A DNA stretch of 63,996 nucleotides, the filler included, from Perkinsus olseni (Eukaryota), in the NCBI GenBank assembly GCA_013115125.1. It is 3 parts of 3 records of this genome, joined end to end, with 100 filler letters (N's around TTAATTAATTAA, not from the genome) between each part and the next. Parts side by side here need not be neighbours in the genome. Positions count along the whole stretch, not along the records: positions 1 to 22,320 come from JABANN010000542.1; positions 22,421 to 44,697 come from JABANN010000543.1; positions 44,798 to 63,996 come from JABANN010000602.1. One strand, written 5' to 3'. Position 1 is the first letter of the stretch, and the number at the start of each line of letters is the position of its first letter. Below, piece after piece: positions 583 through 63,920 of the stretch. Under the pieces are notes generated by a model. The model was not told the DNA's origin, searched no databases, and was given only the letters and a program-made list of their open reading frames with translations. Position numbers and translations under genes: made by a program.

Positions 583-1122
583 ACGCTCGCGTGCATTAGT
601 ATGCGTTCTACGCTAGAACATGCGCTAGGCTAGAACTAACGATAGACCAAAACAGTTTTGGCAAAACTTACGTAAGGCTGGAACTCACGACCACAGCTCC
701 GCTGAACTTACGGAGTTATCGAACGACCGTCGTGTAACTGCGCGTGGTAATGTGTATGTGAGCCTTATTTTACGCGGCTCAACGCGCATATTGCGCGTCA
801 AGGGTGCTCGAACCGAAACGCGTTTTACACGTGACATTGCGCGTACTACCCATCAAGACGCGTATCAGCTCCACGTGATCACGCGTAATGGCGCACTTCG
901 TATGCGGTCATAGCGAGGTGTATTTCGTGCGCTTCACTTTGTGTTTTGCAATGGAGTGAAACCGTTCTACGCGTAGAATTTCTACGCGTAGTCCAGTTGC
1001 ATCCCCACTGTACTGAGTTATAGTGCACTGCACTAAGTGCGGTAGTGATACTACCACTGTGGTACTACACTCGCGTGCATGAGTATGCGTCCTAGGCTAG
1101 AACGTACGCTGCGCTAGATTAC
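583..1122. repeat. Degenerate direct repeat pair (~583-636 and ~1067-1122) flanking an ACGCG-rich tract
   Basis: ACGCTCGCGTGCATTAGTATGCGTTCTACGCTAGAAC versus ACACTCGCGTGCATGAGTATGCGTCCTAGGCTAGAAC. A third, inverted copy of the core lies at 15856-15877. Confidence 0.7.
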
Positions 1123-1471
1123 GCTATGGAATCTCATCACCGAGCAACTCCCTCCGAGTCTGCTTCCACCACTCTTTGAGCTCCGTCTTGAATAGCCACA
1201 CTGTACTGCGTTAAAGTGCACACCGACTGAAAGAAGTTAATGGTTGTTAGCAAGCAGTGAAGGTGGTTGTAACTACAGTGCATGAACGCCGTACACGCAC
1301 ACGTGCTACTCTCAAAGCGAACAAACTCCTAGCGCCGTGAAAACGGAAGCGGGGCGGCCGGATTGACGTTTGACCAGTTTTTGGCGTTGATTCGAGCTTA
1401 CCCTCGAGCCTGTTCGTCACAGTATGCAAATCTCTTTCTGTTGATTGCTAATGGCCCGCTCACTTGCATGC

Positions 1472-4400
1472 ATGAACCCTATCATCGTCCTCTTCGTCAC
1501 CCTCGTAGCACAACTTGCTGCACAAGCATCATCATCTCCACTCGATGCCATAAGTACGGCAACTCTATTGATTACTGTGGCCCGACAGTTCCATCAGATA
1601 CTTGCCCGACAGCGATTTCCTCGTGGCCCCTACTATACCATCAAAGGCCGAACTCCTATTTGGTTGCTCATCATCCTTCTAACGGCAGTGCCCTCCCTAC
1701 TGTGAGGCCCATGACTCTCGCTCGTATGGAACGACTCCTAAGTTTTCGTTCTGTCAGCTGACAACTTCGCATCTACGTAGCCTGTCAGTGATGAGTCTGC
1801 GTCAGAGTACTCAACCAGTGGTATTGGACGCTGTTTGAACTTCGCACTTGCGGGCTGATCGTCCTCGGCGAGAACTCTGTTTTTTGCAAACTCCCCCGGA
1901 ACTGAGCACAGAGGAAATCAGATTTACCAAAACTCAACCAAATCAACACTTTCATGAGTATATAAGCTTCTTCTCTGGCCACACGTTCAGCGATATAGTC
2001 GTTCAATGGTGGTCGCTGCGACCACCATCCGCCCCTTGCCATTCGCCCTTCCCCTGTAGTAAAGGGCCTGTACCGGAAGTATTTGTTTTCTTCTAGATTC
2101 TGTACATCGGGGTGCATTACACGTTCCACCTCGAGCTTTTGGTCATCTCATCATCACTACAACCTGCGATCATGACGAAGCCGATCGCGATGGAAGTCGA
2201 GTTCCACGCGATCGGCTATGAGGTGATGGTCATCGCGATGGCTACCTTGGCTGTACCACCTGTGCATTATCTCTTCGTTTGGGAATGTGGTAGTAGACCA
2301 CAACGTAAGTAGACTGAGCTATCTTAGCTCTAACGAGATAGAGCGGAAAGAGTGAGGAGTAGTCCACCAGCAGGTGACACTGTACTTGACGTAAAGTGGT
2401 ATGCTTTCGAGGAGTGAGTATTGTAGTTGATGACGCGACGCTAGTATGAATCGTACTAGCGTCGTTTCATCAACAAATCATACTGTATGATGAAAGTTAG
2501 TCAACACACAGTTCAATTGTGCTTGCCTAGCACTGCTAGGTAGACAGGCCACCTCTCAGTATTCATACAACGTGACGACGCTGGAGTCATCCGTCCGAGG
2601 GAGGGACATCAGTAATGATGACGATGCAGCCTTCAGTATGGAGGACGCTACTGAGATTTACGAAGAGTATGGTATGAATACACACGCAACCGTGACGGCC
2701 TACCCGCAAGGGGACCCTCGGATACCGGTGAACAGTTCTGCCATCGTGTGGAGAGGAAACTTTTATCTACCATACCACTACTACGAGGTAGGCCCCTGGT
2801 GGATGCTGGCCACCACGCGACATCGCAGGTCAACTTCATCCCTCTGCGGACTGGCGTTTATCATCTTAAAGTGATGTGCATCGAAGAGGACGGGCACTCT
2901 CAAAGGGCACTTGTTCTATCACCAAACACAACCACGCCTCTCGCGCTCACGACGGATGAGGAGGAGTTCCTCAGTAACTTAACTCACACTCTGACGCAGC
3001 ATCATGGATACGCCGACGAGGTACAGTAGCAGAGACATCCAGGCTGCGAGGGCTCGCTTCGCAACATCGTGCCATCTCTCCTCTAGACACGCTCGCCATC
3101 GGTGTATGGACAAGAATCTCTCACAGGGCGCTACGGTGTCGCCCTGTCGGATAGAACAGCTTTCGGCTTCTTAGGGACTTCTGAATTTGCTGATGTTCAA
3201 GACGATATCGACTGTCAACGCTACAGCTACCCTGTCAATGCCATCGGGAAAGAATTCCCTCCTTCTTCTCATCCCTTCGCACAGCGGTTCCTTTCGGGCT
3301 GGCCAAAACATCGTTTTCGAAATTGTAAGTATTGGTATAACTTCAGCGACCACCGTTGGTCGCAGTTACTGCGAGACGCCTTCTATAACGATCTCGACGC
3401 CAATACTGCTGTACCGCCTCTTCTAGCAAATCCCGATAACGACGAAGTCCTCGGCTCCGTCGTGATTATACGACTTTTCAATCAGTCTTCGCCAGAAGTG
3501 ACTCAGCCCTTCAGTGGCAGTTGCATTCATCGATCCCTACCGCGGGTACCAGCTCCATCATCAATAAGATCGAAACGAGATGAGCATCAGATACGGTGCT
3601 CGGTCGTTCCTGTTGGTTGGGCTAGTTCAAGTATGATGATGAGTCTGAAGGTTATGAGCGAGGAGATCGCTCGACTACATCACAAGTATCCAACACTGGA
3701 CGCTCACACAGTAAAGCTCCGCGGTCAACTTCAAAGCGGCGCATTTCTTTCACCAGCGTAACGAGCACGGTGGATACTCAACATGGGCCGAGCAGGGACC
3801 TTTTCCGATGCCAATACGCCCCGGCACCATTGAACCTTCAAGGTGGCTCGAGTGACGCTTTCGCTTCTTTTTCAACGGCGGTATCAGGTGCCGAGCTACC
3901 TGGCCTGTCGATGACGTGCCAGCGACAGTTACTGCTGGTGAGTACGAAAAGTTTGTTATTGTCGATTTATTTGACGCATACGGTAACCGGCATGAAGATA
4001 CCAGTGAGGTGAACAGTATAGCGGCCTACCTACAGCTCCAGGAGGGTTTCTCCTGCTCAATCCCCAATGATAAAATCTACCCCTCGACGTCCTCATTTAC
4101 CATCTACCTCGGTTGCACCACCGCCTCTTCGAGCGCACAACTCGAAGTCATCATCAATGGCCAGCCCATTGATGTCAGCAGCATCACCCCATTCCCGATC
4201 AACCCATCAACAGTGGACAGGCTGACGACTGGGTGCGCTCCTACTCCGGGCGGCTCGGCTTGGTCGTCGAACACCCAATACAATTGGACTTGCACGATGA
4301 AAGATTCCTACGGCAACCCGATTAGTCGCGACACCCTGGTCGGTCGAGCCATAGCGACGGTTATCGGTGCGAGTCTTCATATGAGAGCGATGCTGCACTC

Positions 4401-5487
4401 ACAGTTCTTACCATTACAATACAGTAACAGCAGCAACGCCACCAGCAGGTGACACTGTACTTGACGTAAAGTGGTATTATACCACTGGTATACTTTCGAT
4501 AGGTGCACGGAAGGCGTGGTTGAGTCCTCCGGCATCTCGACAACAGGGGTCCACTTAAACGGTGAGTTTCTCTTCACGCCCAAGTTCACCGAGATCGGCA
4601 ACTATTCCGTTGCGGTGTGGCTCCGCCAAAGGAGAGGTCTGCTTGCTCAGTAAAACTCGGCATGTGTTGTTCTCTCATCTTCATCTCCGGCCATCACTCT
4701 GAGTCATCAGGTACTTTCGCAACTCTGATTTCACCTCCTTAGTGCATCGTCGGTCACTCGTACGACACAGAACCTTCACACCGATACCATACACGACCGT
4801 AGCCTACAATGATGTCTACGGTACGCCGGGTGTGAGCCTCAGCGACGACGTGGAAGCGACAAAAGCTAGAAGTGTCAGAATGATAGGCTCTGTGGAGCTT
4901 CGGGTAGAGTCAACTTCACCCGTTGAGATGAGAGTGCAACTGGCCCACCCCGGTGGCTTCGGAGTGAGAGTAAAGGTCGGGCCACTTGGGAGTACACTCC
5001 TGATGAGGACGGGTCTCACTCCGTCTACTGGGAACTCTTCCCCCTGCGACAGTTCCCTGATAACTGTCATAAACTCGGATGAAGCTGGCGCTGACGATGA
5101 TGGCAGGTTCGAAGGTATCATCACTTATGACGATTTGAGTACGTTGCAGACTAACGCTGGTGACCAGCCGTCGGTGTCGGCGCCCGATCTGTCCGCATAC
5201 TCTGGCTACATGCTTGATATAGTGCTTGAGTACTGGACTGAGGCTTCTTCCGAGGTTGCTGATGATGACCGTCTGATGATACTGTGGTGCACAAGTACAT
5301 CAAACTGCACGGACTCGTCATCGTGGCAGGCGATCCCCTCACTATGCGCCTTCTACCCCACAAACGTTGCAGCATTTGCAGCGGCAGCGTCTCCGGTTGA
5401 CATCATTCCCTTGGTTACGATACTCTGAGGCTTCAACATACGATGATCATCATTGCTCAGATCGCAGTGGATTCTAGATTCTACTGA
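1472..5487 (+). CDS. Large multi-exon secreted protein with Ig/filamin-like and PA14-like segments
   Basis: Signal peptide MNPIIVLFVTLVAQLAAQA. ORF pieces can be joined by GT-AG introns. Filamin/Ig-like motifs (VTAGE..F.IVD.FDAYGN, CTMKDSYGNPI, FTPKFTEIGNYSVAV) and a PA14-like start GLLAQ/YFRNSDFT. Exon structure is approximate. Confidence 0.55.
2364..2410 (+). repeat. Duplicate of the exon/intron junction at 4439-4499
   Basis: 39 identical nt CCACCAGCAGGTGACACTGTACTTGACGTAAAGTGGTAT at 2364-2402 and 4439-4477. Similarity resumes (CTTTCGA) after a 14-nt indel. Confidence 0.9.
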
Positions 5488-5676
5488 GTAGAGCTATAGA
5501 GCGGTGAAACCATGTATCACTTTGCGATTTGTTATCATGCACGAAGAAGTAGTCACGCTTCCCCGTACAAATCATTGTTTGACTTCCAAGTACCTGGAGG
5601 GATAGTGTTGCTACGTCATGAGCGACGCCGGCTTCCGCTGAGTTTTATTCCTAGTTTTCTTCCGAGTTGAGTTGGG

Positions 5677-7506
5677 ATGGAGCTCAGCAGTCATCCAATC
5701 TTCGTTTACGGAACGCTCATGTCGGCGGAGGTCCGGTCGAGTCTAGCCACCGCCACGTCATCGTCTGTGGTGTTTCAGCTGCGTTCGGCGTTACTTGGTC
5801 GCGAAGTCCCTTGTTGCACAGCGGTACTCCCAGCCTCAGCGGGTTATCGGAGGTCAGTCCGTGATTTGAGCTCCGCGTGAAATAGTGGAAATCCACACAA
5901 ACTCCGTTCTTCCTGACATAGTGGCCGCACCCACGCAAAAGAGTCATTTTCTCGCGAGTTGCTTCAACTGAATCCCACGCTGTTAGAAATGGGTGTATCA
6001 CTACGCGAAAGATCATGAAGCTTCATCCTTATTATGCCGGGTTCTATATTACGATTATATGAATCAATGATTCATGAAAAATGATCTGATAATGGATGGT
6101 CGATCATATGATATGATCGACCATCCATTATCAGATTATTTTTGGGTCGTATAGTCTTCTCGCGTACTACACTTCTTCTCGCGATCAGATTAACTGTCAA
6201 CGAAGAAAGGTATCCGGCATTGATCAGAGACACGGATGGCGAAGGGCAGGCAATAGTCGGTCAGTTGCTGAGTACTCTCACTGCAGACGATTTGAAGCTT
6301 ATTGTCGAGTACGAAGGCGACGAGTAAGCCCCCACTTGAACGACTCTTCGGATGCTTCCGCAAGCTGTTGCCGGTAGTCTCTGTGACAATCTCATCGCTT
6401 TACCTTTTCTTATAAGCTCCTCCTCTTGTGTTACAGTCCTACTCTCCAGTACACGTTCAGATCTTCCTCATCCTCACGACTGGCTGAGACTTGGTTCCTC
6501 CGTTTTGCGAACAGGTACTTCGTTTCGACGCTTAAGGTGATGGGCAGTGAATCGATAGAAGTCGAAGCTGCAGTTTTTTTGTGGAAGGAGGATTTACGCT
6601 CTCGATTGGGCCACAAGGGTAAGTCGACCACAGAGAACGTCTGGAAAAGGTTTGCTAATTCGAGTTCCCCACTAGAGAGTAAGGGCGTGTTCAATAAACC
6701 GACCGCATTTCACGTGTGGAAAACAATTCTCGAATCTATCCACGGTTTCAAAATTGGTTTATTGATCGGGGGTTCAACCATGCATGAGTTTCGAGTGACC
6801 TCGCTGATTTGCTCCAAGATGGGCGGTGCTGTGGGCCTTCATTCACATTGTCTCTCTGACTCCCCTTGGACTGAACGCTAGACAGTGTCTGGTAGACACA
6901 GTTGACATAATACAACTATCACAGTTAGGCTAACTTAGTTAGCAGCAACAGAGAGAGATAACAATGAGAACACCGTTGGCTGCAAGCTGCAGCCCTCAGC
7001 TATAATCGATCAAGCCGCGCAAGATACGGCGAATGAATGGTCATGGCGACTGCAGCGAGGCATCGCTTGCAGCTGTCAACGATTGATGCGTTACGAGCCC
7101 TGTCTTTGACTCCCAGTCTCATCGGTGGGTGAATCAAGGTTATCGTATGGTCACTGCACCCTTACAAGCTCTTTTAAACCCTCAGGCATACCATGGGACT
7201 TCTCTGAATGGCTCACGATGGGTTTGGAAGAGGCCGTCGCCGAAGCACGTTCTGTTGGCTCCAAGCATGTAACTGACAAGGCGGTGAGTTCTATCTGCGT
7301 TGACTGGCGAGCTAGAGCGGAGTTCGATTCCTCAGGAGCAGCGTTCACGCTTGGCGGCCAGAGTTGATGATGAGATCGGAGAAGTTATCAATGCGGACTC
7401 AGGAAAGCCAGCTTGGGACGACGAGGACTACCTCCTGCTTTCCCGGATAGCCCTGGCACGCGAGAGAGATCCAGACTCTCGAGTCCGGAACTATACCAAA
7501 CTGTGA
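5677..7506 (+). CDS. Gamma-glutamylcyclotransferase / AIG2-like protein (spliced)
   Basis: Motifs IFVYGTLM, YPALI, IVGQLL, LIVEYEGDEY, AVFLW and WDFSEW join in frame through GT-AG introns, e.g. 5853-6188, 6324-6514 and 6619-7185. Confidence 0.8.
6077..6143. repeat. Long palindrome, 33-bp arms, single G spacer
   Basis: Arms 6077-6109 and 6111-6143 are reverse complements with one mismatch. Confidence 0.95.
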
Positions 7507-7691
7507 AGGAAGCGATGTTTCCCAATACCGACTCTCATTAAAAGTCTTTCAAGTTCTCTCAAGAGGTGTCGAGTTCTTGTGACACACAAATCCCAGTGTT
7601 GGTGATGAAGATTCCCTCGCGAATCCAACGACGAATGAGATGTTGAAACCTCTGATCTGCGAGTTAAGCTCGCCGAGTTTGGGAGGGGAAG

Positions 7692-7765
7692 AAGTCGCTG
7701 GCCATAGGACGCAGCCCGAAACACGAGTATGTATAGCGGCGGCATAGAAACCACCAGCACGATGG
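7692..7765. repeat. 74-bp dispersed repeat, copy 1
   Basis: Matches 19703-19776 with 3 mismatches, same orientation. Confidence 0.9.
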
Positions 7766-9102
7766 TTGGTATAGTAGAGTTGGTAGGGCTCCCGTTTTTC
7801 ATGACGATGGCCGCAGGTTCAAGTCTACAGTAGACAATACAACCGGTCAAACCCCACACAATTCGCTTTGCATGACGAACTACACGAAGCCCGCGCAATG
7901 TAGAGTGGTGCAAATACGGAGACGAAGCAAGCGCTCGCCTGCGGCGCTAGTGCCGACGCTTACGTACCTGCAAGCTGCACCAGAGGATGGAGTTGATGAG
8001 CATTCTGATAATGTCGATATTATTGATCGTTTTCGACTCCCAACTGGTTGAGCGTGTATAGGAGTCGCGGGTTTTCTTTTGCCACCCTCAGCCACCTGGG
8101 GGTTTTGTTTGGTATTGGACTTACTCGTTCTGTGCATTGCTGTTGCCTCGTAGTCCAATAGCCACAGCTATCATCGACAGGGCGGGACGAGTCGAGTTAG
8201 ACGAGTTTAGGGTGGGTCGTGTGCATCGGAGCAGGATTTGCACTTCGCTGAACACGGCCTTGCCATTTTGCCGATTGTCTCGACGCTTTGGGCGTTGGAT
8301 ACTACGTTATCGCCGAGCTTCTGCGTAGCAGCATCACAGGTGGAAAGAAGCGACACTCAGTGAGATTCTGTCAAGCCGTTCGTCCTGGAGGCGACATCAC
8401 ACGCGAGAAGAAAACGCCGTCTGAGTGGATTCTGAAGGGTCATCTTATCCTTCCTTTGCCTGTGACCACCAAAAGGTTCAACCTTTAAGGTTGCCGAGGG
8501 GTCATTCACGCATGACTGAGGAGTCGTTCGTTAGGTCGGAACCTTGCAATTTCAGTCTTGAAGAATACAATCCTCCTTAGGTTGGTCTCTTCAGGATTTT
8601 GCTGTACTCCTGTCTTCTCTATCGGGCCTCAATTAAGGAAAGGGTAGAATGCGTTGGAATGTTGCGCACTTGTATGTATGCGTGCTTAACCAGATCTACA
8701 CCTAATAAGCGCTCGCTGACCACTTAAGCTATGGCCCCTCACGGTTGTGTTAACTTAATCTGAGCACTAGAGTTGCCACTCGCTCACACCCGACACAAAC
8801 CCTACGACAGGCTCTTTGATAAACTCGTCTAAACTCCCACCGACCTAAACCCCCTACAGTAGAGGTACAGTAGAGCAGTAACTGCTCTTTGATCAAGTTG
8901 ACTAGTAAGACGGCCATTGCCCGGCCCGGGCAAAACACGCGTGCACCGCAGTATCACGCGAACACATGGAGTGCTGAAGGAGGCAGATTTGTGTCGGTCA
9001 CCGTTGGTCATCTACGTTCAGAATCGATCATTGTCAAGAATAATAGACTGAAGCACATTATGAAGACTTCACGGTGAAGTACTCAGTCATCGTGATGACC
9101 CC

Positions 9103-9600
9103 TCACGCTCGGCACAATGGTGGGCACGAGGTGGGCACATAGGGACCGCTAGGGGCACCGTTTCCACCGTTACCCCCATTGCCACCGCCGTCGCTGCCAC
9201 CGTTACCACCAGGACCTCCATTCCCGCCAGCACTATTGGCGTTACCTCTCCCGCCATTACCGCCAGCGCCACCATTGCCGCCAGGACCGAAGTGACCGCC
9301 ATCACCGCCATTACCACCAGCACCACCATTGCCGCCTTGAAGGAGGCGAAGCATATCGCTTGACAGAAAACGGCCGGTAGAGTGATGTAGAGCACCGACG
9401 GCGGAATCGTCATCTACCAAGTAGCCCTTTCGCCTGTGTCGCCTGTAGCCCATCAGGACATCGCTATTCCTCGCGTCGCCATCCTGGACAACTAGGGAGC
9501 TAAATTTTCCCACAGCGATGTCCTGATGATAATCGTCTTGAATGGCAATGGCAAGAGAGATGATTTGCAGCACAGCCACGAAGGGGGAGTTTATCTGCAT
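9103..9600 (-). CDS. Secreted glycine-rich (GGNGG-repeat) protein, about 165 aa
   Basis: ATG at 9600, signal-like MQINSPFVAVLQIISLAIA, a C-terminal GGNGGAGGNGG array and a final CPPLC. Intronless. Confidence 0.75.
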   Translation of the reverse strand: MQINSPFVAVLQIISLAIAIQDDYHQDIAVGKFSSLVVQDGDARNSDVLMGYRRHRRKGYLVDDDSAVGALHHSTGRFLSSDMLRLLQGGNGGAGGNGGDGGHFGPGGNGGAGGNGGRGNANSAGGNGGPGGNGGSDGGGNGGNGGNGAPSGPYVPTSCPPLCRA

Positions 9601-11311
9601 GTAAAAATCCAGAACCTGATAGTATAATCGCCAAAACCCTAGTGAAGTTAGAGGTTTAATCAGTTCCTGAGCGATTGGAGACTCCAGGTTGGAGGTAATT
9701 CCAGGTACATGAGAATGGACCGTAGCGGGAGTGGCACTATGTACCGTACGTAATGTAGTACATTGAATGTACGTACTCGACAAAATGTGTACCTGTCGTT
9801 CGATAGATATCAGACCGAGACCTCTTCTTGAAGTGGGAAAGAGGAAACCTACATGCCGAGGATTGGCTCGTTCCAACCTCCGTTGAATAGATCACGGCAC
9901 GCTATACTATAGCGCCTTTAGCCTGTCTATGACGGCTATAGACAGGGCACGCATATGCACTCGGCGCAACTGGTCACAGCGTCGACGTCTTAACCGAAAC
10001 GATTTTTTGATGATTTAAAGCGATATGAGATGGTCCTAATGCAATGCCGAGAGCATGAGAGGGCGGTGCGTGCAGCACTTGCTGCTCGAAATAGCGAACA
10101 TGGTAACACTGGGAGACACCGGTAAGCCACGCTATGGGACACTGCTAGCCTAGCAGTGCTAGGCTAGTGGTACTAGCCCCGTTCGCCTACAGGATATCTG
10201 GCCCAGGCTCATCGGGGGTCTCAAATTATCCACATCGACTCTTATTCTCAGGCAAGCTCAGTACCACTACCACTGCGACGCAAGTAGACGAGACCGCGAG
10301 CTGGAGCACTGATCGAAGACCAATGTACGACCGGAAAAGCAGGAAGGTTGTCCCCGGGACATCGCCCTCGACCAGCTTCGTCACCGTGCGACCCGTACAA
10401 ACCCTGCCCAAGTGGCACACGGTGTGGTGGAGTGAAGAGTAACGTGGAGGCGATGGATCACTTCGTCGCCGGTAACTAAGTATCCGAGAACACACAATAG
10501 ATTACTAATTGATTCGAAACAGGAACCTGGAGCTGACTCGGTGCAAATTGGGCCTGCTCTGTGGCGTTGAGTGTTATAGTTACAATTTGTGTACTGTAGC
10601 AGGCGTGCACGAAAAGTCCCGTGCTCACTATTGCTATGTATATGCCTGTCACTAAGGTCAAACAATCGGCGCAACAGAGCGGGGTCGGGTTCGAAGAAGC
10701 CTCAAGCGACGGTGCGCTACTCTCGTCGCGCGCTATCTCCTTGTGAGAGCCCGGGCTCGTGATTGTATAAAATCTCTCTCGTTTGCGTTGTGGAGATATC
10801 ATTAAGCATATTCTTGGATTAACTGCCCCTGTAAGAAATAATCGCCTACGAAACTGGTTATGGCCGAAAAAAAGCAGACCGAAACACAATTCGGTGGACC
10901 AGAATTCGAACCGCAATTTGGACGAAACAATATAAGGAGCGTGCATTTTTCTTAGGCAAATCCGGGAAACGAAGGTTATCTCGTTCCCAAAGAGCGTTTG
11001 AATTTGAAAGTTGGGCGGCATATACATTTTGAAGCGTGGAATGTATTGATATATAGATCAACCGTTTCATCGACCGTTTCAGCGCCATAGGGCGCGCGAC
11101 GTAAATTTCGCGCGTCTGAGATGTGCAAATTTCTTACACCCAAGCGATTTGGGCCAAATCGCCGCGATTTGATCGCCGATCGCGACTCCCACTGCACGAA
11201 AGGCCGTAATTCACCGTGAATTTTTCACGTGATCCGATCCCCTTCCACGCTCCATGCAGAGTTGTATCGTGAATATGAGCAGTTATTGCGCTGAAGCGCG
11301 ATCGATATAAT

Positions 11312-50582: not shown

Positions 50583-50610
50583 GAAGAGGGGAGAGCAAAA
50601 ACAGAATACA

Positions 50611-50894: not shown

Positions 50895-53200
50895 ATGGCT
50901 GAGGCTCCCGCTAACACAACAGTCGAGTGGCTTCGAGATTATATCGTCCAGTGCATGCAGAGCCCTTCGTGGACGGTGGGAGGAGAGACGGTCGCGACAG
51001 GCTGAGTGGCAGGCTAAAGTCAGATACCTTTGGGCGAATTTATTGACGAGCACTGCATGAAGTTCGAAGATACTCCTGAGAATAAGCTAGAATACACTCA
51101 AATTCACAGTCAGTTCCGAGATCTGGTGGATAGACTGTTGGAGGAACATCTGGCGGAGCTCAGTAAGTTGTACCCGACTGCTGTTACATTCAGTGTCTCG
51201 GTAGGTATCAACAGAGATCTCTTCGCCCAGGTCTTTTTGGATGCGGTAGACGAGGACGATGACTGTGGGATAGTCCTTCGGAGGTACGAAAAATGCGGCC
51301 TCTACAAGAGTCTTTTGAGCATGTCTTTGGCACGGCGAAGTTATACTGACATAATGATGGAATGCTCGAGCGCTGGCGACAAAGGCGTATCAGCAATAAT
51401 CTGGGCAGTGCGGCGACGTTAGGGGGAGTGCAGCTCTGAGAACACGTCTTCTTAACGCCCACTGCTTCCCGTATGCTCGATGTTCTTGGCAGGCTGATAG
51501 CGTCTGAAGACTTCCTTCACTTCAAGGAGTTGATGTTGAGTCGAAGACGAGAGCTTGAACAGGGAGGTTCGGGTAGTGCTATGCCGTGGAGTACTGCTTC
51601 TTCCATGGAAGCCCTTCAGGAGTCCATCAAGGAATAACAGCGAGTACACCAGACGAACATTCTGCTAGGTGAGCCGTGCCCACAGTAATTTTCGATGTTA
51701 TATCGATATTATAAAGTATCATTATTATGCTAATCTAGTATTATTAGGTTTAATGATATATAGAATGTCATATCAGCTTATGTACACTATTGATGCCCTG
51801 TACTATTGATATGAACCATATTGCTAATCAGTGATATATTGTTCTATGAATTAAGGAAACTATTTTGGCACTTACCTGGCGAGCGGACTATCAGTGACTG
51901 CCGTGGAGTGGCTCATTAGTACTCGCGACGCTACGATGGGAGGCATAGTCTCGACTTCTGCTCTTCTTCACAGTGAAAATGATGACGGAGATGGCGCTGA
52001 CGACGAGGAAGACCAACTGCTCCAAGAAGCATTACGGGAGAGCCTTCGGCTGGCGGATCAAGAAGAGGGTAGACGGGGTCTATTACTAATAGGCTATGAG
52101 GCGCTGCGTCGTTGCTTGCGGTCCGGCAAAGGCAACCATTAAATACCAAATACAACAGATCCAATCGACCTTGTCTAAAAATTGAAGAACTTAGGGGGTG
52201 AGGCATTCATAATTCGATCAGTGGCATCTAATAGCTCGGGCCCTGCTGAGGGCGCTTCAGAGTTTTGCCGGAACTGCAACTCTTGAGTCTGTTAGATAAG
52301 TTGATTTTCTCGTGGCGCTGTGAAGGGAGAGAGTATAACCAAAGCGAATACTGATTGTGCGTCTACATCCAATGCTCCTCTTTTCATCAGGTTTGCACAC
52401 ATCGGAAGAACAGGAGATCCAACGAGCTATCGAATTAAGCTTGTTGGAGCACCAAAATAACACTATCGAGGATGGTAACGAGAGAAGCCCATTACCACCC
52501 CTCAAAGAAGTCCGGTCCAAGCGTGTAGTTCCTCCGGACCCTGGGGGTGACAGTAAGAGATTAGACGCCGGCGCCTTGCGATGATCGCTCGTGAAGGTAA
52601 TTTTCCGGCGTCCATCGAGCCCGATAGGAACGTGGTAGACGATGCATCTGAAGTGGAGCCCACGAATGACAGTGGAACACTCAGCCGCGGAAGGCCGACA
52701 AAAGAGGAGATCGAAGGTGGGATGAGTATAGCCGCTACTCGTGGCTCATGGGGATTCTCGATTCTGTTGAGTGCCTCTTTCGTGTCGACTGCCAATATTC
52801 TGTTATGCGGTGCAAGTGATACTCCATCGACTTTTGACCTCAGCCCGGGCGGAGCATCTGCGACGGCAACGAGAGCTCTTTAACGCCAGGATGGCGAGCG
52901 ACGGCCAGAGGTATGGACTACAGCGACGAAGTTGTTCTACTCGAACACTAGGCAGCAATTCATGGCAGGCATGATCGGTCGATACCAAACGTCGTTGATG
53001 CATCAGTTGCCGAGACTCATTCATCTCCGCCAAACGGCATAGGGGAGAACGCGGAAGTATTCATTCGCTCGGGTTTTGGTTCTGCGCTGTCGCGACGTAC
53101 GTTTCGAAGTCAGGCCGACGATGATGGTATGAGAGGCTCAGACTTCCGCAAGCAACTGACGTCGAGCCTTATGAAAGCGCGGAGTCGCCAAGGAGAGTGA
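50895..53200 (+). CDS. CFAP36: CFAP36/CCDC104-like protein (ARL2-binding BART domain plus UIM-like motifs)
   Basis: SPSW, FIDEHCMKFEDTPENKLEYTQIHSQFRDLVDRLLEEHLAEL; UIM-like EEDQLLQEALRESL and EEQEIQRAIELSL; C-terminal PTKEEIE/ARAEHLRRQRE. Confidence 0.75.
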
Positions 53201-53364
53201 CGATTCATCATGTTCTTAATTATGTTTTTGGGTCCTTAACGAACGAGCCATTGAGTACATCGTTCGTGTGGGACGGGTTGTACTTATCTTTGATTCCAGT
53301 CGGGTGACTGTAGATCCTGTTTCGCGATGTCCGCCGGTCATTGGAGTAGCTCCTTCGGGAGATC

Positions 53365-53927
53365 TCACAAGGGTGAGAGCTTCGCTTTCATCTCGACGGC
53401 AGCTCTAATACTCTCGACGGTTGCTTCAGGTGTCACGGCAACTGAGGGAGAAATAGAATCGAGTTGGGCAGCTCTACTGGTACGATTGCTCTGTTGCGTA
53501 TAAAGTACTGGAACCGAGAATCGAACTCGGGACCTACTGCGTGTTAGGCAGTCGTCATAACCAACTACACCATTCCAGCGAGCAGTGACTAGTGTGGTCA
53601 GGCTGTGCATTTTCTCCGCCCGAGTATACCAGCGGTGAAGCTCTTCTGTCTTTAGGCCTCTGAGGAAGAGTCCAATCGGGTCAGAGAGACACAACGTGAG
53701 TGCCTAATAGAGTAACCCAGATGACTGAGGGAGTGCCAGCGTCGATGCAGGTTGGTGTACTCGTCACCGCCATAAGAAAGGAAAGAGGATTCCTGCCGTC
53801 CCAGCACATCGAAGATCGTGTCCTCAGCTGATATCACAGCCGCTGGTATGTACAGTTCGCTCACTTCTTCCGGGGGCTTTGCGATTCCGTCTTGCGAGAA
53901 GACCCATTCCGGCGTGAACTCTGCCAT
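53365..53927 (-). CDS. Hypothetical spliced protein hosting tRNA-Val
   Basis: ATG at 53927 (MAEFTPEWVFSQDGIAKPPEE) followed by a GTGAG donor and further open frames on both sides of the tRNA. No family recognised. Confidence 0.4.
53506..53579 (-). tRNA. tRNA-Val(AAC)
   Basis: GCTGGAATGGTGTAGTTGGTTATGACGACTGCCTAACACGCAGTAGGTCCCGAGTTCGATTCTCGGTTCCAGTA folds as a cloverleaf with anticodon AAC. Confidence 0.93.
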
Positions 53928-54142
53928 TGGCCTCTAACTCTCATCAGAATGCAGCTGCTGACGACAGGCGATGTAGTGTGAAGGCAGACTTCCAGCAACG
54001 GGGTACCCTGAAAGCCGTGTGGAGGCGGAAGTTGTTTGCCCATGATATCGAGGAACCACCGGTAACAATATTTATCACGTTCTTCGCCTGCGGGCCGAAA
54101 CTCACAGCTCGGGTTTTTTAGTCGTGGGAAGCGACAACCGCG

Positions 54143-57100
54143 GTGGAAAAGGACCGATGGGACCCTCAGCCCTTCCGATTACCCCGGTTAGAAACCCTGA
54201 GGGCCACTCTCCCTCGCGAACTTGCGAGCACCGATCAGGGCTACCCAAACTCTGTGAGTCTCTCCTTCTCTCTGCTGTCTGATGTTGGCGGTAGGTACTG
54301 GGATACTATAAATCGGTTAAGAAACAGGGAGATGAGGTGGTCGAAGCAGCCGCTAGGAATCCTGATGTGAGAGCACCATTGGTGTAATGAGGAATGTGTT
54401 TCCCAAGATACTCCGAGCTGTTCGCACAGTCGATGAGAGTGTGGCCAATCTACAACAGCTATTGCGGATGGAGACTGCTCCTGGCCTCCCTCAAGCCCCC
54501 GATAGATCACTTACCAAAGGCCTTCCTATGACATTACAAACATACATTCACACTCGCATGGGGTGATGCTAGCTGTCAAGTGAACATCGTGTTGGGTTCA
54601 TATTGGTGTCAATGTCAACACAAGGGCGGGGTCCCTGCTTCAGCCACATCTGCCCTCTGTCGTCGCGGCCCAGTAATAAACACATGTCACCGGCAATCGT
54701 AGATGAGGAAAAGGTGCTGCTCGAGGCTTTGGGGCGAAGAAGGGTATTCCAAGAGTGCCCTGAAAAATGCAGCCCGGATGAGGCACTCCAACGCGCTGCC
54801 GATATAATTGTGATACCAGTTATTCGATGTTCGGAGATCGGTGGCTCATTCAGGACCGCGAAAATGAGCGTATTACCTTAGAGTGGGAGCAACTCATACG
54901 TGAACCCGCCCTCCTTACCAGAGAGAGGCTGGCTTCGGAATGCGACAGACTGATGGGCGAGGCCTGCGTCGTCATTGAATTTGTTTTCCAACGGTACGAG
55001 CTAGCCTCCGTCGCACCTCGACCGAGCGACAATGGATGCGGCTTTTCATTGCATGCCACCTCATCTCAGAGCTGTACCATCTCCCAGCCTTCGAGATAGC
55101 CTCCATCTTGGTGTATTGGCAGCATCGGCTATCGTGTGTCGCATCGCTACCTCCTCCTACGAACGCTCTGCGCCCTGTGTCGCGGTCAGACATCTAGCAT
55201 ACACAATACGGGCAGTGGAAGCATGTATACCATTGAGGGATACCAAGTGATGATGGATATTATACGATAGGGCCAACATCACTCAGAACCTCGGCATTCA
55301 CTGTAGATACATCTTCTGGCTAGTACAACTGTATAGCCTCCTGTGCGCTTGTGTGGAGGCAAGCCTCCAGGACGGCGGGGCTCAGGAATGTTATCAGAAT
55401 GCATTGAAAGTGGCCAAGGAGGGAATTGAAAGCATCAGTAAACATCCTTGGCGGGGCGCGGCTCAGGCAGTTGGTTATCAGGTCTACTCCAGAAATTGGA
55501 GAATATGGCCCCGCCGGTCCCTGAGGATCGCCAGCGACTTATCAATGAGGCGCTGTTCATCGTGAAAGGCCTCCGAGCTAAGTACCTTTCTAAGCGGATA
55601 TCTCCGATGAATGATTGATCGATTGGCAAGATATGAGTTCTGGACGAACAGCCTTCTGAGCGGGAGTATCAACCCTGACTGCTGCTCGGATTTACAAGCA
55701 CATTGCGGTATTGACGATGGCGATAACCCCGCTCCTGTGAGAAGCACAAGCGTTAGGGTTGGTAGACTGTTTTCGCAGTAGATTTCCACAATCGACTTGC
55801 TTTTGGAAGTGCTCAAAGTTCCATCGTCGCTACTGACACCCAATGACTCGGAGAGGCGGGAAGGTACATCTGCTTGTTAGAAGAGGTTGAAACTGCTCTC
55901 TCCGGATACTAGATACTACTGATGGTGAAGACGCGGAGCGAGAGACAGACTTACTGCAAAGGCTGAGAGTTGAGTTTTTGAGACAGGTTGGTAAACTCAT
56001 CTGAGCATTACCATATCCATAGCATAAAGATTCTTCCTCCTGAAGGTTATAGATTATGCGTCGGTTCCTCTTGGCGTGATAGCTGATGTTTGCAAGGAAT
56101 ACGAAGAATTGATAAGCTCCAAGGTGAGATACTCGTGAGTGACTCTTTACATGAGCCTCACTTGGAGGGCTTGTCATCTGTGCAGGCCATTGGTACTGAA
56201 GATTCCGCAAGCGCTGAGGATGAAGGGCAGCCCAAAAATGCCGAAGGCAGCAGTAAAAGGAGCGAGGCGGTAGTTGCGTTATTCACCATTGTATCTCATC
56301 ATACTCACCACGACTGGCTGGCAACAATGGTGAAAGACTTCATCGCTCAGGCAGCCGCGGCCGCCGCGCTATCTATCGGTGCTCACGCCAGCCTCTTAGA
56401 GTTGACCTTCCGACTGCAGCTCCAAGATAAGTTCGATGAACTGTTGGAAGTGTTCAACCAGAGGCTCAAAGTACGAAACGGTTTCTCCTATGACGCGATG
56501 GTGCGCCAAGGCGCTACCTCAGTATCGTCACCTCATCGATCCACCGCTAGTCGCTGTCGACTCTCTAGTGACTCGAGGAGAAGAGAAGCCGGTCCCTCCT
56601 GCAGGATGGACTATCCTTACTGGAGACCTCAACAGGTCTGCTTATCACAGTGTGCCTCTCTATACCGCCTATGGCGCATCGTGTGTGGTGCACTCTCGCT
56701 CATTGTCCCAGACTTGGCTGTTCAGTGCATCATTTAGGTTCTCCACCAAGTGGAAACTTGGCTCTCTTGAAGTCAAGAAAACTGCTGCGGGAGAAGTAGT
56801 GAAGTGGGAGAGTGGGCAGCGAATGCAGTAAACTCATCATGGGAGTCCTCAGAACTTTTTGCAACTTGAACCCCTACCCACCGATAAAGAGTCTTCACCC
56901 TCGAACGAGACACCGGTTCATGTGTACTTAATCGGCCAGTACCTCAACCTTTGGGAGCTCGATAATCCGGAGCCCGGCGAAGGTGAGTTCGCATACTGCA
57001 GTGTCTCTATCATGACCAATCGAACAGCACGAAAGCCTTTCCGCCCGGCCGTGGGTCGGATATCCTGGTATGGCCTGCCTATTATGAACATCATACCTTA

Positions 57101-59103
57101 CAGGTTCAATACGTCGGATATGCAACGTGGGACTTGTATTCAGTCGAGAGGCACCAATGGATAGCAATGGTGTTCTCACGGAGCAGAAGGAAATACACTA
57201 CCTCACAGGCGGTAAGGTCGTTCCCCACAATGGATACTTATGCTCCTACGCAGCCGTCTACACAATCATATAAATTTACAACGTCACGGTTAAACAGTAT
57301 ATCATTGCCTGTCTATGAGAGTGCTATGCTGCATTTGATATTATGAAATCTGTAATCGGATCTGAGCCATGTAGGCGAGAGCGAGAAACAACTGGACAGA
57401 ACTATCCTAGGCAACAAAACTGGTCCGGAGCGGTAGACATGTTTCCTGCGCGTGCTGTTCTATGGTTTTCAAGATACTTCGTCGGAGAGGACTGCTTCGG
57501 CGGCTCTGCGTTTTCATTGCTTGCCTCTGCCGATTGACCTCGCCTCGGCTGAGGAAGTAAGTTCCACTCATCCGCTGGTTCAGTGTGAAGATTCCCCTCG
57601 ATGGTCTTAGCATAAAATCGTATCGGCCGTTGATATATCGAAACCGTACCTCTTCGCCACTCTCAGAATGAGCTAGCACCTTTCCTCATCTATTCCACGT
57701 ATGATGAGCCGTCTTGTGCGCTGGGTAGAGGACCTAGCCTCCATGCTCTCGACGATCTCGAGCTTACCACGAGCCCAATATGGGCACTCACTGACTTCTC
57801 AACTGGTTCGTTGCCCTCCCCCGAAGCTTCAGCAGACTCTTCCGGCCAGTCATGGTAAGAGGAATGCTTAGTGCGATAAGTTTCTTTGTAAGCGTCACAT
57901 GTTGTTCAGGTGTCAGATGAACAGCATAATAAGAGTTGATTTGAGGATGAGCGCCGCCGAGCACGTCAACTCGCCATTCCACCACCCAATCTACCTCGGT
58001 GCACGAATTGATCTCGATTGCGCGGTAGTTCAGTACAGGCGTGTTCGTCTTCTGAGCCTCGTGGGGACTGTGGACGCACACCCTGAGCAGCTCCCGATGG
58101 CTACAATCCAGCTGGCACGGCTCTTGGAGGGTGATTGCGGTGATGCTCTGATAGATTTTCATGAGCAGCTCGTGCTGGATGCTGCCATGTTACTCTGGCA
58201 TCGGCATTGCGCTCCGCACCTCCAGGATCTGAAAATGCAGGGATCTCGAACCTACGAGCAAACCAGTATCGGAATTCCTTTGTTGACAAGACTAGTTCAA
58301 GTTCTCTGTGCCTTACCGAGAAGATTGGATGATATTGCGTCAACGGTGGCGGAGATATGTCTCAGAATCGACCAGCTTGCTCCCGAGCATCAAGTATCCA
58401 CGTCCAGAAAGTGCTACAGTGCTTTGCGCGGAGCTTATGATATTCTCGCTTGGAACAGCGGACGAAGGAGCATTGAGGCCCAGCTGCATCGGGAAGTTTG
58501 AGAATTCGCATGAGGACGAGTGCGTGTGAGCTTCGTCCGAACGGCAATATTGAGTTGCATTGATGAGGGCCTGGCCAATTTGATGGGTGCTGGGATATGG
58601 CCATCCGCTGACAACGCTTGCGTGTCAGTGATGCGTGATGTGCGCGAGTGTCAGGAGTTGCATGATAAGACGCGGGTTAACTTTGAGCATCCTATCCCAG
58701 CTTACTCGTTGTGCAGCGCCGTGAGAATAAAGATACGCAGCTCGGATTCTTCGAGTTCTTGTTTCTACCCCAGACGCTCTCTTGGGGCATCCAGAACAGA
58801 ACGGCCTAGTAATGACTAGGATGTAGTAACTACTGGTCACTCCTCTTCTTTAGAGTGATGCATAATAATAGCTGCTGACCATTGTGGTTGATGGACAAAA
58901 CTGATCACCAGGATGGTCATTTGGTAGGTCGTAGGACAGTGCGGAAATGCTCGATACAAAAGAGGATGCGGCGTGCCGCACGCCGCGTGGGCGAGAATGC
59001 TCATCGCTCTCTGGGTGACCCAGGCTGGGCCTCCATAGTGATTATTCGACACGCGCTCGACAACTCAAGTCTCGTAGAGGAAGATGAGATTCACCGGTAT
59101 TGA
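54143..59103 (+). CDS. CFAP54-like cilia/flagella protein, partial or interrupted
   Basis: Exon string AVEACIPLRDTK/YIFWLVQLYSLLCACVE..ALKVAKEGIESI/LLQKLENMAPPVP resembles my recollection of the CFAP54 N-terminal domain; later LDAAMLLWHRHC. Boundaries are uncertain. Confidence 0.5.
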
Positions 59104-60633
59104 GACCCGAACACTATTAGAGCGCACAATTCTGACGATAGAGCGCTTTATAGGTCATCCCCGGAACGATTCACTACGTCTCTAATCTCTACAAGCGTCT
59201 AGGTCAGCGACGCACGTCAACTTGCTGGAATGGCCTAGACTAGACCGTTACGTAGCTGTTGCAGGTTAATACTATTCCGGGCCGGAATTTCCGGCCTCTA
59301 TTCAATCGATAGAGAAGAAGCCAGACTGAAACCCCAGGGCAATCAAAGTTTGTTTGATTCGAATGGAACCCAAACCAAGTTAGTGAAATCCCAAAGGAAT
59401 TCAATGAAGTCCGAACCTAATTCTCGAGGCCTACAAGTAATTTAGTCGGCACATAAAACGCCTCCGGAGTCTGCCTTACCCGGGTCTGGCGTTTAAACTG
59501 CCAGGTGCTGCTTCTGGAATGTGTTAAAGAGATCGAGACCTTGAAACGTCATTTAAGAAACTTGTTCATAGGGGCCTCTATGTAAAAGGTTTTAAAATGA
59601 CGTCAAAACATCATACCCTCGTTGCGGGGCTGAGAGATATACGCAGCCGGAGCCTGAATTGGAATGCCTACAGAGGACGGGATACCATCAGAATTCTCCG
59701 AAGTGATCACTGGTATCGCCCAATTGCTATGTGCTGTAGGATGTACAGGTCCAGTACACAGGGTATCCCTTATCCTTAGCTACTGCTAGTAATGTATTGT
59801 TCTTTTTATTCCTTCTCCTGTTGGATGATATTTCCTCCAATAAGTTGCATACTAGTGTTGTATCAATGGTAAAGGGATCTGTGGACCACAGACTGTGGTG
59901 TCGACTGGCTCAAAGGGTGACCAGAAGCGAGCCGCTTCGGTATTGACAATACCGTATCGTAGAGAGGGTCATTAGATGATCTAATTAGATTCTAATTTAG
60001 ATCGCGGAGGTTAAACCTCCGAGGTTTTCGGCTTCGCGGTTGAGCCAACAGCCCTTCCGTTGCTGAACTGAGTTCATTGGTAACAACGTCTGCGTCACAT
60101 GCAATAGGTAGCGAGTGTTTGGCTCGCACCGTCATTCGAATTTCGAATTTCGAATTCGAATGCATTACATCATAAGCCGCGTTGGATTGCTATGGCGTCT
60201 TCTGGTGGCACAGTTTCTGGCACAAACTTGCTGGCGACAGATACCGAAGCACCCAAACCTCATCTATGATTTTTTTGTAAATGTGTGATCTAGTTGTATG
60301 ATTCTCCGAGAATCGACCTCGCCTGGGGTGCGAGAAGTCTCGAGATAGATTCTCGGCTCAGCCCACGATAAGTCATTTCCCTGCTGAGCACGGCCTATAT
60401 GGCAGACAGGCTTCTCAGACCGCGGAGGTTACCGGGACCACTGAATGAAATAGCTTATCAGCGCGCTGGAATGGTCCCAACATTATTAAATTCTTTGTAT
60501 GAGCGTTTCTATGATCTGCATACAGGGGGCGAGAAGAGCTTAGCCATCATCACACGTATGGCAGTGCAGCGGATGGAAGTTAAAAGATGAAGCCGAGAAG
60601 ACGGATAGGAGCTTCGGCTTACTCCTGTCCGGA

Positions 60634-62436
60634 ATGCGACGAGGCCGTAATGCGACGGAATGCGTCGGAATGCGTACGTACGGTAGCGACGAGGCCACGG
60701 TGGGTTTGGAAAGAGGGGTGCCGCAAGGCAGTGCCTTGGGCCCCTTCCTATTTCTGCTAAGCACCCTACCACTAGTCGATGCGTTCGCGGGTATGGAGGA
60801 GAAGGGCGTGCGCCTGACCCTCTATGCGGACGACACGACGGTAGTGGTGTCTGCCGGTACTGGCCCGTCGCTGGTGAAGAGGTGGCGGTCAGCAGAGGCT
60901 CTGCTTCTGGCTTGGGCTGCCAACGCGGGTGTGTCCTACGAGCCGGCCAAGAGCCAAGCGCTCCTGCCTAGGACCATCGGGGACAATATCCTGTCCCTTG
61001 ATGGAATACCCGTTGACATCGTCAAGGTTGTTCGGGTACTTGGTGTTTGGATCGATCACCGCCTATCGTTCCAACACCATATCAAGGTTAGATGTGCCGA
61101 AGCCAAAGCCAAGTTAGGCAGGCTGAGGCACTTGGGCTGGGCACGTGCTGGGATCACCGGAAAGAAAGTGATCAAAACCCACAAGGTGGCGATCGTTCCG
61201 GCCCTCAGTCACGCTGTCTCAGCATGGAAGGAAGGGCTGGAGTCAGCCACAGCAAAATCTGCCTTGCTGCAGGTTTCGGCTATGGTGGCGAGGATAGCCC
61301 TCCAGGCCCCACGGAGCAGCTCCAACGCGGCACTCTGTGTCGCGGCTGGCATCATGCCAGCAGACTTGGAGCTTGGTACCATCGCAGCCACCAGGCTCGC
61401 TGCACTTGGGTGTGCTAAGGCCCTAGACCAATCTCTCTCGGTCAAGGGCTTGACTCTCTTTGAGGGTCGCGATGGTGGTGATATGGTGCAGCGCTGGAGG
61501 GGTTTGCCCACTCAACCTTGGCACCCCTGGGTCACGACTACCATCTCGGAACGTGAGGAGGCCAAGAACTACGCGCTCGAGGCTCTCCAAACTAAGAATG
61601 CCATCTTCACGGATGGCTCGGTAGTCAAGAACGTCAAAACCGGCGCTGCTTTGGTCGTTTATCGTGAGGGCGTAGAGGTCTACTCCAATTTCTGGAAGCT
61701 CTCCCCTTACGCTACTATTACGGATTGCGAACTCCTAGGAGTTCTGGAAGCAGTCCGCTGGATTGTCTCGACAGCGGGTGACGAGGCCTGGGAGATCTTC
61801 ACGGACTCTCAGGCGGTACTCAAGATCCTGTCGTCCCGAGCATCCACGGCCCGGTGGGATAAGGCGAGACAGATCTATCTGTCATTGTCCGAAATCCCTG
61901 GTAGGGTATCCCTTCGATGGGTACCGGGGCACAGTTCCATCAGTGCCAACGAACGGGCCGATGAGCTGGCAGCCAAGGGTGCCTCCATGAGGGAAGTCTC
62001 TGCGGAGACGGAAATCAGTGTGAGGACTCTTCGGCGGTATCAAGGAGAAGCTGGCCGTCTGTCACTGCGCAAGTGGTGGTCAGACAAGAGAGCCAGCCTG
62101 GGCACTTCTGTCAACGACTTCTTTTACTGCGCTTCACACGCTCGTTTGTGGATCCGCGGGGAAGTCACGGCAGCTAGCAGTGCCGTTGTATTCGGAAGGG
62201 CCCCAACCCCAGCCCATCTCTATAGATGCGGGGTGGTCAACTCGCCAGAGTGTGACTGTGGGGCGCCGGTGGGGAACACGCGGCACTACCTCCTCTCCTG
62301 TCCGCTCCTGGAGCAGGCTAGGAATAGGGTCAAAGGTGGTGTCCCCTACCATTTATATAAACTAATTGTTGATTTGAAGCGACGCAAGTCCTTCAAGAAA
62401 GCATTCAGAAATTCTGAGGCCGTATGCGGATCCTGA
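60634..62436 (+). mobile_element. 5'-truncated non-LTR retrotransposon (LINE with RNase H and terminal Cys/His motif)
   Basis: RT GVPQGSALGP, YADD, LGVWID; RNase H FTDGS, E, FTDSQ, WVPGH, NERADE; C-terminal CDCG...HYLLSC. The upstream RT domains and the endonuclease are absent. Confidence 0.9.
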
Positions 62437-63818
62437 TGCTTGCAACACTAGTAGTGATTCACTACCCCTGGGTAAAATCACCCAATGATCCCGATGCGTG
62501 AGTAGAATCGGGCGGTGATGCTGAGTACGCAAGTCGGATTACATTACTCTGAGTAATATGCAAGATTCAAGATGCTGATTCCTGAGCTCTGAGAGAGAGT
62601 ATTGATTCACGATGGTGAATCAAACCCCCATGTCATGAACGATCTTAATCCGCGAATCACAGTGTGATTATCACACTAAATTTACACGAAAAACGCCCAG
62701 ATCCAGTACCGGGGGGTCCTCGCCGCGACCCTCATGGGGATGCTGATTCAGAACCCTGAGTAAAGTCTCGCAATCTTGAACTATCGTAATTTTCCATAGA
62801 ATTTGAAAGGTTAGGTCAAGTCGGAAAAGTTGGAAAAAAAGCTTGCACCAGTATTTAAAGTTCAAATTTTGAACCCGAGTCGAATTACTCGGGTTGTCAC
62901 GTAACGTGACTCACGTTGATGCGAGTGTGTAAGATGCTCCTAGGATAGAAGTTCTATCATAGAACCGGCGATCCCTCCGTGCATCGGAGTAGGTCGCTGA
63001 TTGCGATCAGGCCAGAATCGAAGTTCTCGATCATCCAAATCCAGTCGTTTCCGAGATGAATGGATTTTTTGGGCTGCGCTATCCACAAACGGAAGGAAAA
63101 ATAGATTTCTATTTTTCTTTCCCTTCGCAGGAAAAATAGGGAGGAATGAAAGAAAGAATGGAAATTTCAGCCACCAGTACAATAAGCCCCCGGGGCTTAT
63201 TGTAGTGCCGGGTAGGCACAACTTTTGGTTTTCCGCCTCTGTTTCGTACGAGGCCCACCATTGAATATTTGCTGGAAAAATATATATATAATAAATAGCA
63301 GCAGCTGGAGCAAGCGTCGGAGGACTGGCGACTGGGACGGTGACCGCGAGGATGAAGGAAGATGCAGATGAAGTCGGTCGAAGCCTTAGAGCAGGAAGAC
63401 GTGATGACTAATTCATGTATTGCTCGTTATTAAGGAACGTTTCAATCTGTCCGGAATGCAAGGCTCGCATAGTGACTTCCAAACCATGATAATGGAGCAA
63501 ATGTGTGTTATGGTTCGCCAACCGTTCATGACATGTTCTTGTTCCGGCGAGTGAGGAAGCTACTGGAAAGACTCGTTAGAGCCATTTGTCTGGCTAGAGA
63601 CACTTGCACAAACAAAAGACTTCCCGCGGGGATGAACATGGTTATCACGGATTACGACACGAAGAACCTTGCTCAACCCGACCTCTCTTGTTTCGCCTTC
63701 AACCACGTGTCGAAATTTCCGTCAGCGATGGGACAATACCAACTCCCTGACACTCCGTTGATTCGAGGTTTTCTATGCCCAGTGGTAGCTGTGCGTTCTT
63801 GCATGCAAGACATACAGC

Positions 63819-63884
63819 GCACCCTCTTAGCTTGGGCTTGTATCATACAAGCCCAAGCTAAGAGGGTGCATACAAGTTGTATGC
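63819..63884. repeat. Perfect palindrome (25-bp arms, C spacer) chained to a second one (8-bp arms, G spacer)
   Basis: GCACCCTCTTAGCTTGGGCTTGTAT-C-ATACAAGCCCAAGCTAAGAGGGTGC, then GCATACAA-G-TTGTATGC. Confidence 0.95.
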
Positions 63885-63920
63885 CCTCACTATCAGCATC
63901 CTCAACTTCATCCCTCTCCG

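Follow-up and report, generated by a model that had tools for sequence, protein, structure and literature searches.

The DNA analysed here (the window) is a 63,996-nt stretch of the genome of the shellfish parasite Perkinsus olseni, made up of three contigs (1–22320, 22421–44697 and 44798–63996) joined by N spacers (22321–22420 and 44698–44797). Besides genes, two tRNAs and mobile elements, it contains many palindromes with a single unpaired central base, and these are our subject. An earlier interpretation made without database searches (the sequence-only reading) had described such palindromes across the window and suggested that a hairpin-based mutational process produced them. We found that most belong to a 22-nt scar of fixed geometry, likely left behind when a cut-and-paste DNA transposon was excised.

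The excess of palindromes with a one-base centre is real and pronounced. Perfect inverted repeats with arms of at least 7 nt were counted in window positions 1–63900, excluding the end of the last contig (63921–63996), where 12 C residues followed by a long run of G are probably a sequencing artefact. There were 90 such repeats with a spacer of 1 nt, compared with 5 at spacer 0 and 3–7 at each spacer from 2 to 12. Order-3 Markov simulations (20 runs) averaged 3.25 and never exceeded 6. The eight palindromes singled out in the sequence-only reading were all found: six are perfect (63819–63869, 16392–16434, 63178–63204, 10145–10167, 16005–16025 and 17437–17455), one has a single mismatch in 33 (6077–6143) and one has 3 mismatches in 24 (2426–2474). 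It had also held that the arms share no sequence, and indeed the 8-mers from which they are built are mutually unrelated and drawn from local sequence. An Rfam search of the window returned only the two tRNAs and so gave no hint that the palindromes belong to a known RNA family.

In 54 of the 90 spacer-1 palindromes the arm is exactly 7 nt, and many are paired, with centres 7 nt apart. This arrangement follows a simple rule, in which a local 8-mer is replaced by its bases 1–7, its full reverse complement and its bases 2–8, giving 22 nt and a net gain of 14. The model with a unit of 8 matched 19, 37 and 54 sites at zero, at most one and at most two mismatches, respectively, against averages of 0, 0 and 0.4 in five shuffles; units of 6, 7, 9 and 10 gave no exact match in the window. 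Exact triplications of the form K-n-K′-n-K, with one-base spacers, show the same preference (23 for a 6-nt core, 5 for 4 nt, 2 for 5 nt and none for 7–10 nt). The spacer bases are also not free: the first of them complements the base that follows the last copy, and the second complements the base that precedes the first copy. The rule holds at both tips in 19/23 exact 6-mer triplications and at one tip in the other 4/23, and in none do both fail. Each centre base thus complements the base that its copy has lost. Altogether, 62/90 spacer-1 palindromes are scar tips, and exact two-tip pairs at distance 7 number 27 (19 perfect and 8 with a changed middle). The proposal of a hairpin mutational process is therefore supported, and it narrows to an 8-bp unit with tips 7 nt apart, a fixed geometry that the sequence-only reading had missed. 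The Transib/RAG transposases that it had offered as one source duplicate 5 bp, lose no base and leave even palindromes. In the window, spacer 0 was not enriched (5 palindromes), and a unit of 5 gave 3 exact matches against 1.2 in shuffles; a Transib/RAG origin is accordingly not supported.

To establish the direction of change, we compared scars with paralogous sequence. The exact scar at 4471–4492 is located within a short GT-AG intron; the gene matches a protein designated P0008, and the exon positions are taken from that match. A 39-nt exon-intron stretch at 4439–4477 is duplicated at 2364–2402, and this paralogous intron copy (2364–2410) lacks exactly 14 nt at the scar. Likewise, the exact scar at 15937–15958 shows an exact 14-nt gap against another copy (∼390–600) of the dispersed repeat in which it lies. 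This repeat has three copies in the window (∼390–630, 1010–1220 and 15850–16100) and 14–20 further contigs in each of four public sequencing runs, and because its copies carry different scars, the empty site can be tested. A second exact scar in the same repeat, at 16008–16029, corresponds to a 14-column gap in a multiple alignment; a local aligner gave no clean gap. At 16013, 14, 16, 20 and 18 contigs from the four runs leave the window sequence and resume with the sequence beyond the scar. These comparisons support the scars at 4471 and 15937 and, less cleanly, at 16008 being derived +14 insertions relative to an empty site.

Read-derived contigs from the four runs were compared with the window over 900–20899. 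Two runs, X2 (study P1) and X5 (study P2), are nearly identical to it, and two, X7 and X8, are divergent. Half of the X7/X8 pieces listed (8/16) have a one-directional net indel of at least 5 nt (−8, +15, +14, +21, −28, +14, +35 and +21), and by our own arithmetic 6/8 of these, in both directions, are multiples of 7, two of the pieces overlapping. One X8 contig over 12366–13004 is 28 nt shorter than the window, across a span that holds three scars. This suggests, and does not show, that scars have been gained in both lineages since their split. The process had also been called active. This stands only in the sense of recent, since 19/54 scars are unmutated (the other 35/54 having decayed by one or two substitutions) and net indels in the divergent runs are mostly multiples of 7; no transposase was found among the ORFs searched.

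Scar sites, to which no strand is assigned, are unevenly distributed. The first contig has 38 (1.7 per kb) and the middle contig has 2, while the third has 1 in 44798–58500 and 13 in 58501–63900 (2.4 per kb), the boundary at 58500 having been set post hoc. Single exact scars lie at 647–668, 8472–8493, 10142–10163, 14917–14938, 20630–20651, 21145–21166, 59274–59295 and 62655–62676, and pairs of exact scars at 16647–16668 and 16673–16694 and at 62896–62917 and 62944–62965. Three scars fall close together at 12400–12421 and 12423–12444 (2 mismatches each) and 12646–12667 (exact), and a cluster at 59878–60027 comprises exact scars at 59878–59899 and 60006–60027, one with a single mismatch at 59939–59960 and nested tips at 59978–59996. 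Nine overlapping chains had been listed in the sequence-only reading. Seven of them are exact 22-nt scars (starting at 4471, 10142, 14917, 20630, 59274, 59878 and 62944), and the one at 1021–1064 is real and resolves into two adjacent scars, 1021–1042 (1 mismatch) and 1044–1065 (2 mismatches). The ninth, at 63868–63884, is instead the second tip of a longer scar whose first tip is at 63844. Palindromes had also gone unnoticed in a gene block at 27–44 kb. This block lies on a separate contig, the gene-dense middle one, where depletion is strong yet one exact scar occurs (39197–39218), the sole one there. For one protein of this contig, the match to Perkinsus marinus stands at 79% and those to paralogues in P. 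olseni and P. chesapeaki at 36–40%; with the P. olseni protein matched by an ORF in a repeat of the first contig, this points to Perkinsus, probably P. olseni, as the host.

Three longer palindromes fit an extended form of the scar, in which both tips give the same 8-mer and fold-backs of the two flanks, unequal in length, fill the space between them. In the scar at 16384–16434 the tips are at 16391 and 16413, with fold-backs of 3 and 21 nt, a 3-nt overlap and a net gain of 29. The scar at 63819–63884 has tips at 63844 and 63876, fold-backs of 25 and 8 nt, a 2-nt overlap and a net gain of 39. A third, at 2443–2491 (tips 2450 and 2484), includes the right arm of the palindrome at 2426–2474; its left fold-back is 24 nt with 3 mismatches, its right 7 nt, and 2 nt are unexplained. 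The palindrome with 33-nt arms (scar span 6056–6143, tip 6110) looks by eye like the right tip of another such scar; a second palindrome (6059–6075) lies over the left tip at 6063 (one mismatch), and the 6063/6110 pairing failed the scripted test. After the long-form test 25 palindromes had no partner tip and were left unexplained, among them 967–991, 2006–2028, 16209–16235, 17771–17793 and the single-tip palindrome with 13-nt arms at 63178–63204. About 3 of these are expected by chance, and the rest may have lost their other side.

Perfect palindromes can form as chimeras, and the sequence-only reading had named a library fold-back artefact as one finding that would undo its claim. Over the 900–20899 span to which the read-contig comparison is confined, contigs from X2 and X5 (covering 900–7002, 8914–10961, 12134–14634, 15107–20899 and other pieces) match the window with 0–1 differing letters, no gaps and single-copy depth, although X2 or X5 may itself be the source of the assembly. 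The palindromes are thus present and unchanged in the read-derived contigs of two studies, and a fold-back origin was not borne out. A divergent X7 contig also spans 5766–6234, including the palindrome with 33-nt arms, with one gap. Given the unchanged sites in X2 and X5 and the one or two substitutions carried by 35/54 scars, a library or assembly artefact is very unlikely, its probability being close to negligible.

We consider it likely that a cut-and-paste DNA transposon left the palindromes behind as empty-donor scars. Such a transposon, most plausibly a hAT element, would duplicate 8 bp of its target and form hairpins on the flanking DNA. Insertion would duplicate an 8-mer. On excision, the transposase would nick one base into each flank and seal a hairpin, its tip complementary to the base that was lost; the geometry of this step is visible in the scars, and the chemistry is taken from the hAT literature. 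A host nuclease would then open both hairpins, leaving 3′ tails that consist of the 8-mer and its reverse complement and are fully complementary. Annealing of these tails over 8 nt and filling of the gaps would give the product observed, bases 1–7, the reverse complement and bases 2–8, with 14 nt gained. A hairpin opened further out and joined through 2–3 nt of microhomology would produce a long palindrome, and annealing in direct register would restore the site and leave no visible trace. As +14 disrupts a reading frame, scars would be expected to persist in introns, spacers and repeats. The presence of one dominant outcome suggests that repair may proceed through microhomology annealing rather than classical end joining, a pathway often lost in parasitic protists, in an account whose main text does not mention Perkinsus (PMC6635534).

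Footprints of this kind are best described for Ac/Ds in plants, Saccharomyces cerevisiae and Candida albicans. There, palindromic additions are centred on the complement of the element-adjacent base, arms reach up to 20 nt in yeast and microhomology at the joint is frequent (PMC5873905); cleavage has been placed at the nucleotide flanking the insertion (PMC1978519). The scars in Perkinsus share the complement-centred palindromes and, in the two clearest long forms, may share the microhomology and the arms of up to ∼20 nt. They differ in that the Ac/Ds footprints described in these sources are varied and mostly short, whereas here a single +14 product dominates, short forms are no commoner than chance predicts, scars stand fixed in the genome at a density of ∼2 per kb, and no matching element was found in the window. 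hAT elements form the hairpin on flanking DNA (PMC6900584) and Hermes makes 8-bp duplications (PMC10368747). Our scars resemble those of Hermes and TcBuster in the 8-bp target duplication (here deduced from scar geometry), the flank hairpin and the complementary insertions at the empty site (PMC10368747, PMC6900584, PMC3499496). Unlike the targets reported for these elements, the 54 predicted targets show no preference for nTnnnnAn or a central TA; this preference is family-specific, and its lack does not exclude a hAT element. The TcBuster footprints reported from human cells are also only a few nucleotides long, in contrast to the scars described here. We can state strongly that the scar works like a hAT excision footprint; that it was made by a hAT element is what we infer.

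Several results weigh against this interpretation. A search of the window for terminal repeats flanked by an 8-bp duplication (pairs within 12 kb, 9-nt exact repeats) found no such element, and none appeared among the contigs listed from the four runs over 900–20899. Eight weak candidates with 10–11/14 terminal-repeat matches were dismissed on inspection as chance. Pfam detected no transposase family among 91 selected open reading frames (ORFs), a subset of those in the window; the matches were to subtilase, EF-hand, phage-type RNA polymerase, BART, reverse transcriptase and RNase H. The search for a hAT or Transib transposase that the sequence-only reading had proposed therefore yielded none among these ORFs, and it is from the scars that we infer hAT membership. 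The sole clear DNA element in the window (11312–12158) was ruled out as the scar maker, as its empty sites imply a 3-bp duplication. Within the scars themselves, distances of 1 and 2 between tips, corresponding to short Ac-type forms, have 1 and 3 pairs, where ∼1.1 are expected per distance. The predicted targets match nTnnnnAn in 5/54 cases and have a central TA in 2/54, and T is slightly under-represented at their first position. The long-form test rescued 3/28 of the remaining palindromes, and a control with a 6-bp unit rescued 4/28. Finally, the X7/X8 indels are known by length only, and those of +21 and +35 are not accounted for by +14 alone. Two further ORFs were considered and rejected. 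The ORF at 63476 has a motif that we take to resemble the hAT catalytic stretch, and no homologue was found among longer proteins; for the ORF at 57872, the only leads from the atlas were weak ones, to helical-repeat proteins. Two metagenome scans returned no matches.

The same route of excision and annealing could have been driven by a different family of DDE transposases that forms flank hairpins and makes an 8-bp duplication, such as a MULE-like, Merlin, Dada-related or undescribed element. We regard this as unlikely. To our knowledge, flank hairpins have not been described for Merlin, and no exact scars were found for units of 9 and 10. The absence of the Hermes consensus from the predicted targets speaks for such a family, as does our literature search, which found no paper on hAT transposons in Perkinsus. 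Relatives of Dada and Merlin have been reported in P. marinus (PMC3706591, PMC8101967), the latter with no identifiable ends in that species (PMC8101967), and Dada makes 6–7 bp duplications and targets small-RNA genes (PMC3706591). Among MULEs, which make flank hairpins and 8–10 bp duplications, Muta1 resembles the scars in its flank hairpin and 8–9 bp duplication. In contrast to the scars, with a unit of 8 only and always a one-base tip, its duplication is variable, its hairpin was sized at 43+43 nt, suggesting no lost base, and more than 90% of its excisions are reported to be precise (PMC5499845).

Two explanations dispense with the transposon. A host or domesticated nuclease could make an 8-nt staggered break, followed by fill-in one base short, hairpin sealing and rejoining, with no insertion at all. 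The very high density of scars (1.7 and 2.4 per kb in scar-rich DNA) and the lack of a matching element would suit such an enzyme, and the nearest precedent, the domesticated hAT transposase Kat1 of yeast, does make hairpin-capped breaks. Kat1, however, requires its own terminal sequences and cuts one locus (PMC4763223), whereas the scar sites share no sequence. A nuclease would also have to supply both the duplication and the hairpin through more unshown steps, while insertion followed by excision gives both by known chemistry, and we judge this origin quite improbable. Replication template switching, which the sequence-only reading had also raised, would have a polymerase copy 8 nt off the opposite strand and return. 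It needs no transposon, and no fitting element was found in the window and no transposase among the selected ORFs; it yields inverted repeats, including two around an inverted spacer, and a short-range switch likewise leaves a local inverted copy between inverted repeats (PMC5453318). Lengths are variable in those events, whereas a switch gives no reason for a constant 8 nt or for a one-base offset at both switch points. In our own mapping the return point would precede the departure point, an order that the same source reports as unobserved, in human-chimpanzee data (PMC5453318). With the fixed length unexplained and the order of events unseen, the chance that template switching made the scars is very slight.

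Excision of an 8-bp-duplicating transposon remains our preferred account, and two extensions of it go further. Rather more tentatively than the excision account itself, hairpin-capped breaks in this organism might be mended almost only by annealing of opened hairpins, with the same +14 mark for each imprecise excision. Cut-and-paste events could then be counted and dated from the genome as from a ledger, and they would be a main driver of intron and spacer growth in this lineage; we find this conceivable, though on balance doubtful. In a bolder version, the cutting might be done genome-wide by a flank-hairpin nuclease, domesticated or undescribed, with no element left.

Within the literature searched, no paper was found that reports the scar, either from Perkinsus or as a pattern seen genome-wide (most subscription papers lay beyond the search), and the accessible text of PMC8062965, PMC3499496 and PMC7789003 has nothing specific on it in Perkinsus. 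The chemistry is already known; the uniformity and the density were not found in that literature. This window contributes three polarised sites, a connection of the long palindromes to the 22-nt scar, and the indel lengths in the divergent runs. Excisions of DNA transposons are usually hard to detect afterwards. A fixed, self-identifying scar at ∼2 per kb would allow past jumps to be counted and dated, and thousands of targets to be read, without the element. The scars could also gauge how much non-coding DNA departed transposons leave behind, one short intron being ∼14 nt longer than its paralogue, and they report on break repair in a lineage of parasites that stands at the base of the dinoflagellates and has been little studied.

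The window contains several other features. The DNA element at 11312–12158 is non-autonomous and 847 bp long; its terminal inverted repeats are perfect over 14 bp, and its target duplication appears to be 3 bp. It is nested in another repeat and has a depth of ∼12x background; some relatives carry internal deletions, and empty sites occur in other copies. The tail of its internal ORF matches the C-terminus of the P. olseni hypothetical protein P0007 (84% over 38 aa), for which neither a family match nor an atlas match was found. An unclassified high-copy repeat at 7570–8236 has a summed contig depth of ∼90x background in X2. The gene that holds the intron scar is a multi-exon gene at ∼2870–7500; the unnamed protein that it matches, P0008, is 838 aa long (79–95% identity in the four stretches compared), and no Pfam family was found.

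A subtilase gene lies at 12452–14314, and the tRNAs are tRNA-Arg (44482–44555) and tRNA-Val (53505–53579). The minus strand carries, at 33896–38872, pieces of an RNA polymerase gene of the phage type (probably organellar), with Pfam RNA_pol at 33899–34711. The ORF at 60544–62436 encodes reverse transcriptase and RNase H, likely as part of a 5′-truncated non-LTR retrotransposon, and contains no scar (at most 2 mismatches) despite its scar-rich flanks. On the minus strand at 50611–50632 are 22 nt that we take to resemble the Perkinsus spliced leader (Rfam gave no match). This stretch lies just upstream of a Gag-like ORF (50651–48747, minus strand), which is followed by a 1196-aa Pol-like ORF (48825–45235, minus strand) with no Pfam match. 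Together, the Gag- and Pol-like ORFs and the spliced-leader-like stretch may represent a retroelement copied from a trans-spliced RNA.

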